Of a stretch of DNA of 64,000 bases, positions 7,690 to 54,888 are shown piece by piece. Position numbers and translations under genes: made by a program. The first letter of the stretch is position 1, and each line of letters begins with the position of its first letter. The DNA comes from a virus. Taxonomy: Duplodnaviria; Caudoviricetes. Location: the IMG/VR virus record IMGVR_UViG_2921119228_000004, positions 13,876 to 77,875 of that record; one strand, given 5' to 3'. The notes below the pieces were generated by a model. That model was not told the DNA's origin and did not search any database. It saw nothing but the letters and a program-made list of their open reading frames with translations.

Positions 7690-8958
7690 CTATTTAGAGA
7701 AATGAGCACAAATAAGCTTAAAATTCGAGATTTCTTCTTTCGAAAGTCCTTCAATCCCCTTTTTCTCTATCTCACGTAAATTTCTCTCAGTAACACTATT
7801 TTCTCCTATTGACGCTTTACTAACTACGACATTAAAATAGTCATAAAAGATGCGTGCTACAATTATCATTTTACTATATCTAAGAATCTCCTGGTCTTTC
7901 ATGAATATTATTAATTTGGCCAAATGATTCTTCGTCTTATGGACATACCGCTGTTCTCTTACGATATTAAACTCCTCCAGTTTCTCTATCAGTTTATGTA
8001 CAACATCCTCGTTATAGCCGTTAAATAGGTTGTAGAACCTATCTTCCTTATATGATGATTTATCGCCACCCTTATCAGAAACATTTGACAGTTCACTTTG
8101 AGAGTAATTCAACGGTTCTTTTTGAGAAACACCCGACGAATCATCAAGAATATCATTTTCACCATAGCTTGATGACCTATCGCTACCCTTATCAGAAACA
8201 TTTGACAGTTCACTTTGAGAGTAATTCAACGGTTCTTTTTGAGAAATATCCAACGAATTATCATGAATATCACTTTCACCATAGCTTGATGATCTATCGC
8301 TACCGTTATCAGAAACATTTGACAGTTCACTTTGAGAGTAATTCAATAGTTCATCTTGAGAATCATCTGACGAATCATCAATAATATCACTTTCACTATA
8401 AATACATCTTTGTACCCCTATCGTATCAGAATGGGGTTTGAAGAACTTTAACCAATAGCAAAAGAACGTACCATGCCTTTTTTGGCAATCAATTAGAACA
8501 TTTCGCAAATTAATATCATATCGTTCAAAAGCTTCTGTGACATCTGAGAAGAAAATTGGTATAACAAACTTTTGAAATACTTTGGAATGAAAAATGGGAT
8601 GATTTAGCTGTATTTCATATAAACGCTGTAATATTTCCTCCGCATAGACCATTCTAGCTTTAGGATCCATCCCTAACAATCGAGATTTTATTGCATCTAC
8701 ATATTTTACACGTAATTTCTCACAATGTTGACCAACCGCAAAAGTTAAACCCAAATTCACACAAGCCTCATTCGATCTATTGTCCGAATCATCAGAGTAT
8801 GCAATATCGTTATTGATATTATTATCAACAGAAACAAACAAATCTTTCCCATCAATGATTTTAGTTCTGGGGTCATAGATATACTCTTCCCCAAATTTAT
8901 GTATAACATCTAGAATATCATCACAATACGATCTTACATTTTCCATAAAAATAATCAA
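7690..8958 (-). CDS. hypothetical protein with three 39-aa Ser/Asp-rich tandem repeats
   Basis: 422-aa ORF between integrase and excisionase. Confidence 0.75.
   Translation of the reverse strand: MIIFMENVRSYCDDILDVIHKFGEEYIYDPRTKIIDGKDLFVSVDNNINNDIAYSDDSDNRSNEACVNLGLTFAVGQHCEKLRVKYVDAIKSRLLGMDPKARMVYAEEILQRLYEIQLNHPIFHSKVFQKFVIPIFFSDVTEAFERYDINLRNVLIDCQKRHGTFFCYWLKFFKPHSDTIGVQRCIYSESDIIDDSSDDSQDELLNYSQSELSNVSDNGSDRSSSYGESDIHDNSLDISQKEPLNYSQSELSNVSDKGSDRSSSYGENDILDDSSGVSQKEPLNYSQSELSNVSDKGGDKSSYKEDRFYNLFNGYNEDVVHKLIEKLEEFNIVREQRYVHKTKNHLAKLIIFMKDQEILRYSKMIIVARIFYDYFNVVVSKASIGENSVTERNLREIEKKGIEGLSKEEISNFKLICAHFSK
8050..8400. repeat. 117-bp coding tandem repeat, about 3 copies
   Basis: acatttgacagttcactttgagagtaattcaa recurs at 8081, 8198 and 8315. 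Confidence 0.9.
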
Positions 8959-10260
8959 TTAGCAAGTTACTATCTGATTAAAAAATTCATGTCCTTTCAA
9001 CTGTATAGCATTCTCCTTCTCCGAGATCTTAATATACTTCATGAATGAAGATTCCGTCTTGTGTCCCGTTATCTTCATTATACTAATGGGTGGCAATCCT
9101 GCTAAATAAGCATTCGTGGCAAAAGAACGCCGAGCCGTGTGACTCGTTACAAGATCATATTTAGGCTTCGTTTCAGCATAAGTTAAAGTACCTTTTGTTC
9201 TTTGCAATAAGATTGGCTCATTAATCTCAGCCTTCTTCGCAATCTCTTTGATATAATCATTAAATTTTTGATTTGAAGGAACACGAGGCAACTCATTATC
9301 ATATTTCTGCAATATCTGCCGAACTATCGCATGCAAAGGGATAACTACAGTCCTACCGGTTTTCACAGTCTTTATAGTAATTACACTCTCTACATTATCA
9401 ATATTATCAGAACTCAACAAAGACAAATCACTAAAACGTAATCCTGTACAGCAGCCTATCAAAAACAAATCCCGAACCCGATCCAATCGAGGTTCATCAC
9501 TTAAGTCACACTTATAGATTTTCTTTAGCTCATCACTATTGAGGTAGACAGAATAGGTTTCCTCTTTAGGCTTACTAAAACGCTTCTTTTTGAAATCCAT
9601 ATTTGTATGTAGATTACGTTCATAAGCCTCATTCATAAACATTTTCAAATCCTTTATACGAGCACCAACCGTATTTGGAGAATAACCTTTATTCGTTAAA
9701 TATTCAACAAATGACAAATAAAAATCCAAGTCTACATTCTCAAATTGTAGCCTTTTCCCTGTTAATGCAATATACCCCTCAATCTCACGAGCTGTTTGCT
9801 TATACCCCTTCACAGTATTAGGTTTCTTATCAGTTTTCTCTATAAAGGATTTGACAAAACAAAGTAAATCCTTGACATCTCTATCCGGTTCTATCTCCTT
9901 GTAACCTTTAAATATCTTATCCAACTCCTTTGTTAGTAGCTCATTCGTTGGCAGGATACCGTCATTCTCCAACCGACGTAGCACATCTTTAGCCGTAACT
10001 TCGATATTATCCAAAGCCGCTTTCAGTTCTCTATACTCACCAGCGTTCATCCGGTGATTCCTCGCTGTAGGAGCGATCGGAGCACCAACTTTCGTATCCC
10101 ATCTTTCCGGCAAAATTGTCTCATTAGTATAATACTTCAACGGTAAGTACTTTTTCTTCCCATCGGGTAAAATAGTATATGCACCGTAATTCATCAGAAA
10201 AAAAATAGCGGTAGGCTTATCTGACTTCGGACGTGTCAAATAGAATTTTACTGTTGCCAT
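8959..10260 (-). CDS. tyrosine recombinase/integrase (Bacteroidales Arm-SAM-catalytic type)
   Basis: TGLRFSD, KTVKT, HTARRSFATN, TGHKTE, FMKYI catalytic R-K-H-R-H-Y set. Confidence 0.95.
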   Translation of the reverse strand: MATVKFYLTRPKSDKPTAIFFLMNYGAYTILPDGKKKYLPLKYYTNETILPERWDTKVGAPIAPTARNHRMNAGEYRELKAALDNIEVTAKDVLRRLENDGILPTNELLTKELDKIFKGYKEIEPDRDVKDLLCFVKSFIEKTDKKPNTVKGYKQTAREIEGYIALTGKRLQFENVDLDFYLSFVEYLTNKGYSPNTVGARIKDLKMFMNEAYERNLHTNMDFKKKRFSKPKEETYSVYLNSDELKKIYKCDLSDEPRLDRVRDLFLIGCCTGLRFSDLSLLSSDNIDNVESVITIKTVKTGRTVVIPLHAIVRQILQKYDNELPRVPSNQKFNDYIKEIAKKAEINEPILLQRTKGTLTYAETKPKYDLVTSHTARRSFATNAYLAGLPPISIMKITGHKTESSFMKYIKISEKENAIQLKGHEFFNQIVTC

Positions 10261-33115: not shown

Positions 33116-33703
33116 TTATTTAACAATAATTGATTCCAGCAACGCATCAGAAGCCTCTTCAACATTCTTTGCGTTTGCTGTTTTTACACTCTCTGGATCT
33201 TCCGAAATAAGGTTTTGAGTTATTAAGTCTTGTTTCAGACCAGCGCAATAAGCATCTGGATCCTCTTCATCAGGAATAACCAAACCTTTTCTTCTCCATT
33301 CGGGAATACCATGCTTGTTAAGAGCTGCTTGAACGGCTGTTTCACGATCTTTCTTAGCTTGCTCTTGTTTCATTTTATCCATTTCCGCTTGAAGTTCGGA
33401 GATCCGTTTGTTTGGATCGTTATCAGGTTCCTTTGGCTCCTTCGGTTCTTTAGGTTCTTTGGGTTCCTTCGGTTCTTTTGGCTCCTTTGGTTCCTTCGCT
33501 TTGTTAGCCCACCTGGTAGCTTCTCCTTGACTTTCTTTTGCCACATCCGCTATTTGGTTTGCTACTTTTTCGATTTCCGCTTCATCAGTAGAATCATCCT
33601 CAATGCTGCCACCCATTTTTTCGGTTATCGCAGTAAGGTACTTCTCTGATAAACCAGTGTCCTTACATAAGTCTTTGACTTTCTTAAAGAGTGTCTTATT
33701 CAT
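33116..33703 (-). CDS. capsid scaffolding protein with (KEP)7 tract
   Basis: Acidic coiled-coil protein first in head operon; imperfect 9-bp repeats ~33426-33498. Confidence 0.7.
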   Translation of the reverse strand: MNKTLFKKVKDLCKDTGLSEKYLTAITEKMGGSIEDDSTDEAEIEKVANQIADVAKESQGEATRWANKAKEPKEPKEPKEPKEPKEPKEPKEPDNDPNKRISELQAEMDKMKQEQAKKDRETAVQAALNKHGIPEWRRKGLVIPDEEDPDAYCAGLKQDLITQNLISEDPESVKTANAKNVEEASDALLESIIVK

Positions 33704-35612: not shown

Positions 35613-36044
35613 ATGAAACTTGTAATATACAATAAAGAAAACAGCCAGCCAGTAGGACAACGCAACGGAGAAAGGACTTTGAGATTTAATCGTGAAAATG
35701 GTATGATCTACATTTCTAAGTCTTTTGCTGCTGAATTAGGCATTAAGGATATAGATAAAGTTCAGTTTGCCAATGATGAAGAAAATACAAAGGACTGGTT
35801 TATTTGCAAAACCGATAGCGAACAAGGTTTTTCTATCAAGTACGACAAAGGCGGTATTCGCTTTATGAATAAGTTCCTAAGTAATAAGATACTTGATTGT
35901 GCAAAAGTAAAGGATAACGCTTCCTTCCTTATGGAGAAGGAGCCTATTACAGTCGATGGTACTAAGTATTTTAAGATAATGCTTTCTTCTCCCATAATTG
36001 TAAAGCGTTCACCGAGTAAAAAGGCAACTATAGATAAACGCTAA
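35613..36044 (+). CDS. hypothetical protein
   Basis: 143-aa ORF. Confidence 0.7.
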   Translation: MKLVIYNKENSQPVGQRNGERTLRFNRENGMIYISKSFAAELGIKDIDKVQFANDEENTKDWFICKTDSEQGFSIKYDKGGIRFMNKFLSNKILDCAKVKDNASFLMEKEPITVDGTKYFKIMLSSPIIVKRSPSKKATIDKR

Positions 36045-36055
36045 ATAGAAAAGGT

Positions 36056-36262
36056 ATGAATACATTTTACATGGTATTTGTGGAAGGGTGTGCTACCCCA
36101 GCTTGCAAACATGATAGCTTGGATAGTGCGGAAAAAGAAGCGAAAAGGCTTGCAACTCTTTTAAAAAAGAAAGCATACGTTTTGTGTACTATAAAATCAG
36201 TTGAAGATACTCAATACAAAATTGAGGATTGCCGACCTGGTGAAAGTGATTTACCATTTTAA
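36056..36262 (+). CDS. hypothetical protein
   Basis: 68-aa ORF ending in DLPF. Confidence 0.65.
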   Translation: MNTFYMVFVEGCATPACKHDSLDSAEKEAKRLATLLKKKAYVLCTIKSVEDTQYKIEDCRPGESDLPF

Positions 36263-36274
36263 TTTATATGGAAA

Positions 36275-37347
36275 ATGCAAAAACATAAATTCCCCTATAA
36301 TTGGAGGCTTTCAGAAGCCAAATTCACGAAAGATAAAGGCAAAGTGTTCTCTTGTTTTGCGTGTGGTGGTGGCTCTACAATGGGTTACAAGTTAGCCGGA
36401 TTTGATGTAATTGGCTGCAATGAGATAGACGCAAAGGTTAATCGGTGTTATGTGGCTAACCACTCACCCCGATATAATTTTTTGGAAGATATACGAACAT
36501 TGAGAGAGAGAGAGAGAGAGAGCTACCGCCCGATCTTTACAATTTGGATATTTTGGACGGTTCTCCCCCATGCTCCACCTTCTCCATTGCCGGAAATCGT
36601 GAAAAGGATTGGGGTAAAGAAAAGAAATTCAGAGAGGGGCAATCTGCACAAGTTCTTGATACGCTTTTCTTTGATTTCATAGCTTTAGCAAGGGTATTAC
36701 AACCAAAAGTTGTAGTAGCCGAAAATGTGAAAGGTTTACTTATGGGAAGTGCAATAGACTATGTTAGGCGCATATATAAAGATTTTGATAACGCTGGCTA
36801 TTATTGTCAGCATTTCCTTCTTGATGCGTCAAAAATGGGTGTTCCTCAGAAAAGAGAACGGATCTTCTTTATTTGCATTAGACATGATTTAGGGATCAAT
36901 TTTTTGAAGGTATCTAATCTGTTTAACGTAGAGCCATATATAAACATGGAGTTTAACGAGGATCCTATAGTATATGGTGCTTTTGCGGATTATAAAGGAA
37001 GAGCCTATGAAGGCAGAATGAGAGAACTTTTTGAACTCAGGGAACAAGGGGATATAGCACTATCGGAAGCCTATAAAAAACTCACTGGTAAACGTGGCTT
37101 TTTTAACCAGCAGTTCTGTTATGAAGATAGAGTTTGTTATACATTGTCTGCACACCTGGATTCATTGATACCATTTAAGCAGCCCGTCTATCTATCCACT
37201 TCTGAGGTATGTAATATATCCACGTTCCCACAAGATTATAATTTTTGTGGTTTATCGCCACACTACATTTGTGGTATGAGTGTTCCACCCGTAATGATGG
37301 CTCAGATAGCCACACGTATTTATGAACAATGGTTGTCGAAATTATGA
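36275..37347 (+). CDS. C5-cytosine DNA methyltransferase frameshifted at an (AG)10 tract (probably phase-variable, OFF as sequenced)
   Basis: Motif I FACGGG in the first ORF; GSPPC, ENVKG, PQKRER, GMSVPP in the second; removing one AG unit joins them into 356 aa. Confidence 0.9.
36502..36522 (+). repeat. GA dinucleotide SSR (21 nt)
   Basis: gagagagagagagagagagag inside the methyltransferase gene. Confidence 0.95.
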
Positions 37348-37529
37348 AAGGAATAACTAAAGCAGCAAAGCAAGCCAACGGACGAAGCCAGGCTTGCACT
37401 ACGTGTCCTCTAAATCGAAGTAGAGGTGTTTGTTTACCCGAAATACAAAGGGTTTGCTCAGATGCGTTTGTAGAAGGATTTAAAAAAGGTGTAAAATGGC
37501 TGCAAAAGCAGCAGGAAAACAACTGTTGA
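37329..37529 (+). CDS. small Cys-rich hypothetical protein
   Basis: CTTCP..C..C; coupled ORF. Confidence 0.55.
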   Translation: MVVEIMKGITKAAKQANGRSQACTTCPLNRSRGVCLPEIQRVCSDAFVEGFKKGVKWLQKQQENNC

Positions 37530-37530
37530 A

Positions 37531-38055
37531 ATGGCACAAGAAAGCATAGACTACTTTATACAGATGGCAAAGGACTACGCCAAAGCTAAAAAGGATTTAG
37601 AGGTTCAGCATTGGGTTTTTGTGAATTTCGAGCGCAAAGATGAAAGTAATAACTATGTACGCTTATTCAGTTACGATTTACCACGTGAAGTTTACGAACA
37701 TAGAAAGTGGGTAGTAGAATGGAGAAAGGCAAAACTTGTTTGCCAATATCCAAAAGGGTGTGTACGATACACGTTGCATTTCTATGATAAGCGTTTGGGT
37801 AACAACATACAACTGAATAAGGATTTGAATCGGCTTATATCGGCAAAGGCTCAGGTTACAAAGGCTCAACGCAATATTGATAAATATGTAGCCTACAATA
37901 AGGCTCATAATCTGTTTTTCGATGAGAGTACCGATACGGATTTATTGAAAGCTCGTGAGAAACTTGAAGCTAAAATAATCAACGTAAAGGAGGCAGAAGA
38001 AAGAATGAGATTAAAAATCAAACAAATACAGGAGGGAAGAAATGACAAAAATTAA
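37531..38055 (+). CDS. hypothetical protein
   Basis: 174-aa ORF. Confidence 0.7.
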   Translation: MAQESIDYFIQMAKDYAKAKKDLEVQHWVFVNFERKDESNNYVRLFSYDLPREVYEHRKWVVEWRKAKLVCQYPKGCVRYTLHFYDKRLGNNIQLNKDLNRLISAKAQVTKAQRNIDKYVAYNKAHNLFFDESTDTDLLKAREKLEAKIINVKEAEERMRLKIKQIQEGRNDKN

Positions 38056-38512
38056 ATTGAATTGGACATACGCCAAAGGTGAGTTAGATACTGATACATT
38101 GAAACTTATTTGCCTACCAGCACGAGGTAAACGCTCGTTTGGTGCGGATGAATTGGATGCAGAACTTTGTATAAAGGACGGGATGAATTACCAAATAGCC
38201 GAAATTCATTTAGGCGATGTGGAAAGCTCAAACATTCTTTGTGAAGAAATCGCAAGACGGTTTAATGAATTTGAGAACTGGCACGAGTGTAAAGATGATA
38301 CGGAAGCTATGCCAGAAATAGGAACAAATTGCATCCTTCGTGTGGAATATCAGAATTTAGATGATGGCGAATGGTACACTGATTACTTAACATCTACTTG
38401 GGGAAAATTTGGTTGGGCAGAAGACTATTTGGAACGAATAGCAGACATTGCCAATGAATATAGGATAACCCACTGGAAACCCATAAACAAACCGAAAGGA
38501 GTTGAAGAATGA
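38042..38512 (+). CDS. hypothetical protein with DUF551-like C-terminus
   Basis: WHEC...MPE...ITHWKPI pattern. Confidence 0.6.
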   Translation: MTKIKLNWTYAKGELDTDTLKLICLPARGKRSFGADELDAELCIKDGMNYQIAEIHLGDVESSNILCEEIARRFNEFENWHECKDDTEAMPEIGTNCILRVEYQNLDDGEWYTDYLTSTWGKFGWAEDYLERIADIANEYRITHWKPINKPKGVEE

Positions 38513-54397: not shown

Positions 54398-54888
54398 TTA
54401 ATTGTTGAGTTTTATATATTTACCAGGTATATTAGAATATTCCAGTATTTTTGCGTTTTCCTCACCAAAGGCTATAAGAACGCTACCGCACCCTGGGCTA
54501 TCTCCTTGTGTACCATCTGGTCGATAGAATTTTATTCTACCCTTCACAAACATTATTGCGCTTGCATTTGGGAAAATGAGATCTTGAAACATCTTGCTAT
54601 CACAGCGATTAAAAAGCAATGCTATCCCGTTATTGTTCCTTACCATCTTTTCCACAAACCGCTCAATAAGAGGACGTGAATACGGAGGATTTAACCATAC
54701 TCTTACCCCCCCCCCCATTCAGTTTTTAAACCATCCTCAGAAGGCGTTATATGTCTTTTGGCGGTGTTCCACAAACGATTTTCAGGAGCGCATGGATCAA
54801 GATCAAAACTCCCTAAAGCGTCCACTATCCATTTGGGAGTGTACCACTCATCCGTTGTCTGCTTACTTCGTTCAAAACTCGTATTCAT
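54398..54888 (-). CDS. phage Dam-type N6-adenine methyltransferase frameshifted at a G11 tract (probably phase-variable, OFF as sequenced)
   Basis: DEWYTP..FDLDPCA..EDGL..W in the upstream part; WLNPPYS..FVKGRIKF in the downstream part; G9 or G12 joins them. Confidence 0.88.
54706..54716 (-). repeat. poly-G11 SSR
   Basis: 11 consecutive C on the + strand. Confidence 0.95.

Follow-up and report, generated by a model that had tools for sequence, protein, structure and literature searches.

The 64-kb stretch of DNA analysed here (the window) comprises bases 13876-77875 of a provirus record of 77,875 bases in IMG/VR (IMGVR_UViG_2921119228_000004). It contains a C5-cytosine methyltransferase-family gene (36275-37347, plus strand), which is a single gene spread over two reading frames that meet at a run of ten AG dinucleotides. 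Very probably, this is an orphan gene of a temperate phage of Bacteroides and Phocaeicola that is switched by slippage in the (AG)n tract, and the same phage has an independent switch in the form of a G run in a gene for a Dam-like methylase. The comparison of natural alleles points to a contingency (phase-variation) locus, at which the gene would be switched within clones.

The tract is embedded in the context ...CATTG(AG)10CTACCGCC..., and Tandem Repeats Finder reports it as a repeat of period 2 with 10.5 copies and 100% matches (36502-36522). It is the sole dinucleotide repeat with at least five units in the window, and the chance expectation of (AG)6 is 0.00, as determined with 100 dinucleotide-preserving shuffles. 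The first piece of the gene matches positions 2-56 of the Pfam profile PF00145, including motif I (FxCGGG), and the second piece matches positions 61-323 (E 3.4e-34). Thus, the two pieces are adjacent in the profile. The frame starting at position 36523 encodes LPPDLYNLDILDGSPPC... through to the stop at 37347. The two frames are offset by two extra bases and therefore 9 or 12 AG units would fuse them into one open reading frame (ORF). A first-pass annotation of the window had placed motif I in one frame and motifs IV, VI, VIII and X in another, split at (AG)10, and had proposed that (AG)9 or (AG)12 restores the full ORF. The profile matches and the offset of two bases bear out both statements. 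Moreover, the junction that had been predicted for the repaired gene (..TLRERERELPPDLYNLDILDGSPPC..) is exactly encoded by a natural allele with 9 units (L004:2755-3825).

The first-pass annotation had also named the tract lengths in homologous prophages as a check of its proposal. Homologous loci were retrieved by a protein-based scan of viral contigs (80 loci), from a set with one genome per species (45 loci) and by a DNA-pattern scan of metagenome contigs (80 human-gut loci). In total, 116 complete tracts could be measured in viral contigs, Bacteroides genomes and human-gut metagenomes, and their lengths range from 4 to 20 units. The window-type clade has tracts of 5-17 units (n = 52), the clade related to phage Versailles has 4-14 units (n = 56) and loci with the L029-type flank have 8-20 units (n = 8). 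All three frames occur, with 43 tracts in frame and 38 and 35 in the two other frames, in genes that are otherwise intact and often nucleotide-identical. Neither a single in-frame length nor an invariant tract accompanied by further lesions was seen among the 116 tracts. Integrated copies also exist in both states, since 7 of 19 copies on contigs of more than 100 kb are ON, as counted by hand. The three alleles with (AG)4, which are L002 from phage Versailles, L085 and L146, have identical coding sequences and are all out of frame.

The 89 complete genes correspond to 45 distinct coding sequences when the tract is left out. For instance, eleven loci with nucleotide-identical tract-less coding sequences have 8, 9, 9, 9, 10, 10, 11, 12, 12, 12 and 13 units, and other groups with identical tract-less coding sequences cover 6-12, 9-14, 8-20, 5-7 and 8-13 units. 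Because identical coding sequences carry tracts of differing lengths, the tract changes far faster than one substitution occurs in the flank of about 1 kb. The combination of fast-changing long tracts and stable short tracts is what length-dependent slipped-strand mispairing predicts. Furthermore, contigs tend to end at the tract. Among the 50 loci for which whole contigs were available, nine have a contig end at most 60 nt from the tract (L129, L135, L147, L149, L155, L160, L174, L180 and L193), as compared to 2.1 expected (P 3e-4). This excess could be due to mixed tract lengths within samples or to an effect of the repeat on the assembly.

The coding parts on both sides of the tract are maintained irrespective of the frame. 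The C-terminal part is intact in 62 of 65 OFF alleles and in 38 of 40 ON alleles, and the N-terminal part is intact in 69 of 72 OFF alleles and in 38 of 39 ON alleles. Several of the few failures come from low-coverage or chimeric contigs. Moreover, purifying selection acts on the gene. Within the window-type clade, the non-synonymous differences per site (pN) amount to 0-0.005 and the synonymous differences per site (pS) to 0.014-0.046, and between clades the values are 0.11-0.13 and 0.67-0.78, respectively. A fixed pseudogene was considered and is ruled out by the integrity counts of OFF and ON alleles together with the ratio of non-synonymous to synonymous changes (dN/dS). Thus, the earlier proposal that the (AG)n tract serves as a switch of the methyltransferase gene, which is OFF in this copy, is supported by the frame logic, the allele lengths, the intact genes and the purifying selection.

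The tract is confined to one lineage. In a tree of the C-terminal part, the 33 distinct sequences with a tract cluster in one group that requires one change (Shimodaira-Hasegawa-like approximate likelihood-ratio test (SH-aLRT) 86) and that adjoins the tract-less LoVEphage type. According to this tree, the (AG) tract arose once. Since the tract-bearing sequences are a single clade with a pS of about 0.75, the pure tract has been retained through a divergence that saturates synonymous sites. In the tract-less relatives, which include the LoVEphage type and sequences from Flavobacterium, Cellulophaga and others, the distance between motifs I and IV is 204 nt, in a few cases 201 or 213 nt, and all of these relatives are in frame except for locus L124 from a metagenome-assembled genome (MAG), which has a spacing of 206 nt and is out of frame. 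In close relatives with 74-88% identity, the linker at the site of the tract is degenerate, such as in P0005 (LKEKELPP), P0010 and P0012 (LKYRELP) as well as P0016 and P0021 (among LKERNLPP and LKETELPK). These sequences may derive from tract-bearing genes and be locked ON, or they may represent precursors of the tract.

The phage possesses a second switch, which was absent from the first-pass annotation. Apart from the (AG)n tract, the window has a single long simple repeat, a run of eleven C residues, which corresponds to G11 on the minus strand (Table 1). The run splits a gene for a Dam-like N6-adenine methyltransferase into two pieces, of which one reads ...DEWYTP...GLKTEWGGG-stop and the other one MGGGVRVWLNPPY... 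An intact allele with G9 (L210) encodes a single ORF of 208 amino acids. Among 80 related viral loci, those with a tract have G7 to G12. The in-frame G9 is the commonest state (25 loci), one locus has an in-frame G12, seven have an out-of-frame G8 and the others are out of frame as well. More distant Dam-like relatives have no G run and a fixed spacing of 153 nt. Among contigs that contain both switches, each of the four possible ON/OFF combinations is found. Both genes are ON in the contigs 093160 and 077429 (both AG9 and G9), and only the Dam-like gene is ON in the contigs 096202 (AG10, G9), 152421 (AG7, G9) and 029358_000005 (AG10, G9). The C5 gene is ON and the Dam-like gene is OFF in contig 095747 (AG15, G8), and both are OFF in contig 116280 (AG13, G8) and in the window (AG10, G11). 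Searches with PF00145, PF01555 and PF02086 detected no further DNA methylases in the provirus. The only two long simple repeats in the window are thus located in the two recognisable DNA methylases of the provirus.

The natural ON allele with 9 units encodes a protein of 356 amino acids (P0003). This protein scores 118.7 bits with the dcm profile TIGR00675, for which the cut-off is 100.65, and it matches PHROG 116 ('DNA methyltransferase'). In-frame products of 354, 356, 358, 360 and 362 amino acids are on record. In the alignment A1 of the family, the residues F28..G31-G33 (motif I), S96-P-P-C99 (motif IV), E149-N-V151 (motif VI) and Q191-K-R-E-R195 (motif VIII) are invariant. A model generated with AlphaFold from 53 homologs has a predicted local distance difference test score (pLDDT) of 89.6 and a predicted template modelling score (pTM) of 0.90. 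The model places the Arg-Glu repeat encoded by the tract (residues 77-82) in a helix/turn between the strands 67-70 and 92-95, just ahead of the SPPC strand, and it is plausible that an insert of variable length would be tolerated at this position. The fold also matches those of M.HhaI, M.HaeIII and DNMT1.

The closest solved structure by sequence and fold is PDB 8YF3 (phmmer E 1.2e-46 over the full length; Foldseek E 4e-22, template modelling (TM) score 0.70-0.75), with M.HhaI and M.HaeIII next. This is SpCmoX, the DNA cytosine C5-carboxymethyltransferase of the Synechococcus phage S-B43, in which Arg350 binds the carboxymethyl group of carboxy-S-adenosylmethionine (Cx-SAM) and takes the position of Asn304 in M.HhaI (PMC12783734). 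Both enzymes share the SPPC catalytic motif. However, Arg350 of SpCmoX corresponds to Met334 in the window enzyme, whose motif X reads G333-M334-S-V-P-P (Met334 codon 37276-37278), and the provirus has no gene for CmoA. The Met residue, which replaces Asn304 of M.HhaI, is invariant in alignment A1 and present in 118 of the 119 sequences in which motif X can be recognised, the remaining one (P0024) having Arg. The CmoA profile TIGR00740 gave no match in the 77.9-kb provirus, a CmoA of the host being outside this search. By the criteria of the SpCmoX paper (PMC12783734), a carboxymethyltransferase of the CmoX type was therefore rejected in spite of the SPPC motif, based on the HMMER alignment of Arg350 with Met334 and the lack of CmoA in the provirus. 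The product of the enzyme is presumably 5-methylcytosine (5mC), although the canonical Asn is lacking, too.

The mechanism that we propose draws partly on what is known about contingency loci. The (AG)n tract is located in a linker that connects motifs I-III with the catalytic motif IV. During replication, slipped-strand mispairing would lead to the gain or loss of AG units at a much higher rate than point mutations occur, and the changes would be reversible within a lineage. Tracts with a multiple of three units (6, 9, 12, 15 and so on) would allow synthesis of the full-length enzyme, in which a surface helix/turn contains a short Arg-Glu repeat, and with all other lengths translation would stop after motif I, as predicted for the (AG)10 copy. 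A population of phages or lysogens would then contain both modifying and non-modifying genomes. The G run in the Dam-like adenine methylase gene would act likewise and independently, which would give rise to four modification states. The likeliest benefit would be bet-hedging of phage DNA modification, because a methylated genome would be protected from restriction that is blocked by modification and exposed to methyl-dependent restriction. Methylation of the chromosome of the lysogen may come with costs or regulatory effects.

Several points weigh against this view. First, the ON alleles are not in significant excess over one third (43 of 116, binomial p 0.43), and from the allele data alone, an adaptive switch cannot be told apart from a mutational hotspot that is tolerated. 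Second, the (AG)4 alleles may be locked OFF rather than switching. Third, some of the IMG/VR and ENA loci possibly represent one sample that was assembled twice. Finally, the enzyme is a member of the C5-cytosine methyltransferase family by its fold and its other motifs, and it departs from the family in motif X, which makes the cofactor pocket non-canonical.

The strongest competing explanation, which we consider possible but rather unlikely, is that the prophage carries a phasevarion. In this case, ON/OFF methylation of the host chromosome would alter the expression of host genes and generate phenotypic subpopulations, and the protection of the phage would be secondary. The copies that are integrated in contigs of 100 kb to 1 Mb exist in both states (7 ON of 19), and the enzyme is an orphan for which Pfam, PHROGs and PADLOC recognise no restriction partner among the neighbours, both of which would suit a phasevarion. 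A documented precedent for a prophage methylase that changes host traits is PamA of Staphylococcus aureus (cited in PMC13076061). However, the gene resides in an accessory block with genes for RNA repair and the removal of ADP-ribose, which rather resembles an infection-stage counter-defence.

It is improbable that the tract is a hypermutable microsatellite without an adaptive role, in which case a useful methylase would frequently be lost by accident and selection would restore or re-sample the ON copies. The near-equal use of the frames (43:38:35) is what neutral length drift would yield. However, a costly hotspot could easily have been removed by synonymous changes, and yet the pure tract has been retained in a single clade. 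Moreover, the second repeat lies in the only other methylase gene of the phage. A purely neutral hotspot is hard to reconcile with these two observations.

Recoding by ribosomal frameshifting or transcriptional slippage, or an enzyme composed of two polypeptides, could also yield an active methylase from the split gene. Phage Versailles, which has 74% nucleotide identity, made this idea attractive, because its (AG)4 tract shifts the frame by two bases as in the window and its annotated methylase coding sequence starts past the tract. In the window, a TTG start codon at position 36544 could open a product of 267 amino acids, and gene callers report this product in about 1000 sequences. However, it lacks motif I, and the out-of-frame tail at the end of the N-terminal fragment is not conserved. 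Moreover, 37% of the alleles are plain in-frame fusions, and the 116-allele survey, in which three frames occur and none is conserved, led us to reject the programmed frameshift that Versailles had first suggested. Recoding is therefore very unlikely. Although errors are common in repeats and contigs are often interrupted at the tract, it is hardly conceivable that (AG)10 is a consensus error in a tract that is truly in frame, because the spread of 4-20 units far exceeds a stutter of +/-1 unit, the lengths recur across independent assemblies and records of cultured strains are out of frame, too (Versailles, 4 units; Bacteroides acidifaciens DSM 15896, 11 units). A slippage-switched methylase gene remains the preferred explanation for the tract.

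DNA methylases that are turned on and off by repeats are a classic of bacterial pathogens. In phasevarions, methyltransferases of Type III (mod) and Type I (hsd) systems contain repeat tracts (PMC5909438, PMC7383803, PMC3498834). For instance, the Type III mod gene M.MmyCI is switched by an (AG)12 tract (PMC3498834). As in the window, changes of the repeat length cause frameshifts that turn a DNA methyltransferase on or off. However, the phasevarion enzymes are N6-adenine methyltransferases that belong to restriction-modification systems of pathogenic bacteria and control established regulons, whereas those of the window are orphans of a prophage. The hpyAVIBM gene of Helicobacter pylori encodes a solitary C5 methyltransferase with an AG repeat in the ORF, in which changes of the unit number cause truncations, and it has been called phase variable (PMC3411764). 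This gene shares with the phage gene the AG dinucleotide repeat in the ORF of a solitary C5-cytosine methyltransferase. In contrast to the phage locus, which has 4-20 units, encodes an enzyme of a different C5 subfamily and occurs in phages of Bacteroidota, hpyAVIBM is chromosomal, has 4-5 units and owes part of its variation to substitutions. For the CpG-specific C5-methyltransferases of Mycoplasma pulmonis, M. crocodyli and M. agalactiae, active length variation of poly(GA) or poly(G) tracts has been demonstrated by fragment-length analysis (PMC9465063). These enzymes are also of the Dcm type and have the GA or G tract in the middle of the gene, just upstream of the catalytic domain. However, they are encoded by chromosomal genes of Mollicutes and have a known CpG specificity, whereas the gene of the window belongs to a temperate Bacteroides phage.

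Recently, adenine runs in the agt gene of phage T2 and the rIIA gene of phage T4 have been described as phage contingency loci, and according to the authors none had been reported in phages before (Gomez, Barrick and Waters, bioRxiv 10.1101/2025.10.21.683753). These loci and those of the window have in common hypermutable repeats, and the reversible frameshifts and the role in bet-hedging against host defence that were described for the coliphages are proposed for the window as well. Moreover, agt is also a DNA-modification gene. The coliphage loci differ in that they are homopolymer runs of virulent phages. In the temperate gut phage analysed here, one methylase gene has a dinucleotide tract and the other one a G run. 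The preprint mentions neither methyltransferases nor dinucleotide repeats nor temperate phages (10.1101/2025.10.21.683753). In a literature search that covered a part of the journals, no report of a phage-borne repeat-switched methylase in Bacteroides phages was found. Moreover, repeat switching is not mentioned in the accessible part of a large Bacteroides methylome study with about 1000 prophage methylases. Repeat-switched methylases themselves are already known, and the variant described here is a phage-borne dinucleotide-repeat switch that occurs together with a G-run switch in a family of gut prophages that is abundant and has cultured carriers.

The evidence from natural populations is unusually dense, and the prophage family is abundant in a dominant genus of the gut. 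The switch may help to account for the mosaic methylomes of Bacteroides isolates, and the host range of phages and the epigenomes of lysogens in the gut might vary randomly from cell to cell. More tentatively, one could imagine that the temperate phages of this widespread family in human-gut Bacteroides operate a lottery with two switches and four epigenetic states for the DNA of phage and lysogen, which would hedge bets between defences that are blocked by modification and those that depend on it, and that the large clade with the GMSVPP motif next to CmoX, given its altered cofactor pocket, possibly makes a mark other than 5mC. The idea is directly testable, because cultured carriers exist with phage Versailles in Bacteroides caecimuris (OMM12) and with B. 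acidifaciens DSM 15896.

Table 1. Positions of the two switches, the split methylase genes and further features in the window
Feature	Position	Strand	Remarks
N-terminal coding part of the C5 gene	36275-36502	+	Start ATG 36275; motif I FSCFACGGGS; PF00145 positions 2-56
(AG)10 simple sequence repeat, putative frame switch	36503-36522	+	Encodes Arg-Glu repeats when in frame; 4-20 units in homologs
C-terminal coding part of the C5 gene, other frame	36523-37347	+	Motif IV SPPC (Cys codon 36571-36573), ENV, QKRER, target-recognition region, motif X GMSVPP; stop 37345-37347
ORF open in this OFF copy	36275-36682	+	135 amino acids: 82 native residues including the tract-encoded Arg-Glu repeats, then an out-of-frame tail of 53 residues
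Dam-like N6-adenine methyltransferase (EWYTP ... NPPY), split in two ORFs	54398-54888	-	PF05869 positions 5-59 and 62-144
G11 run, putative frame switch of the Dam-like gene	54706-54716	-	G9 or G12 in frame; G7-G12 in relatives
Tyrosine integrase	8959-10260	-	PF00589, E 2.6e-17; marks the phage as temperate
Accessory block with the C5 gene	34082-42203	+	Helix-turn-helix (HTH)/sigma-like gene, small unknown genes, DUF551, RtcB, ADP-ribosylglycohydrolase

The assignment of the window to a prophage, which had been made previously, agrees with the provirus record in IMG/VR and with the integrase gene (Table 1). Related genes are present in the Bacteroides phages Versailles and LoVEphage and in Bacteroides genomes or MAGs, among them that of B. 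acidifaciens DSM 15896, and cluster names indicate Phocaeicola vulgatus, B. stercoris and B. intestinalis. Versailles is an induced prophage of the OMM12 mouse consortium with B. caecimuris as the host (PMC10197239). The accessory block with the C5 gene is encoded on the plus strand and flanked by modules on the minus strand. Using Pfam, PHROGs and PADLOC, no restriction enzyme was recognised among the neighbouring genes (35613-36044, 36056-36262, 37329-37529, 37531-38055 and 38042-38512), of which small ones remain without an assigned function. In Versailles and LoVEphage, the neighbours of the C5 gene are unlike those in the window. Because no restriction enzyme is recognised nearby and the neighbours vary between phages, the C5 methylase appears to travel alone. 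Thus, the earlier statement that the gene is an orphan without an adjacent cognate restriction gene holds as far as these searches reach. A scan for sigma-70 promoters and terminators around the C5 gene was uninformative, with 18 promoter-like sites as compared to 16.7 expected.

Two tandem repeats with longer units are also present in the window. A 117-bp unit is repeated three times with 90% matches (8053-8400) inside an ORF of 422 amino acids next to the integrase gene (7690-8958, minus strand). The other one is a 9-bp/27-bp repeat with GGTTCCTTT units (33425-33498), which lies inside an ORF on the minus strand (33116-33703) that belongs to PHROG 5824, a family with no assigned function.

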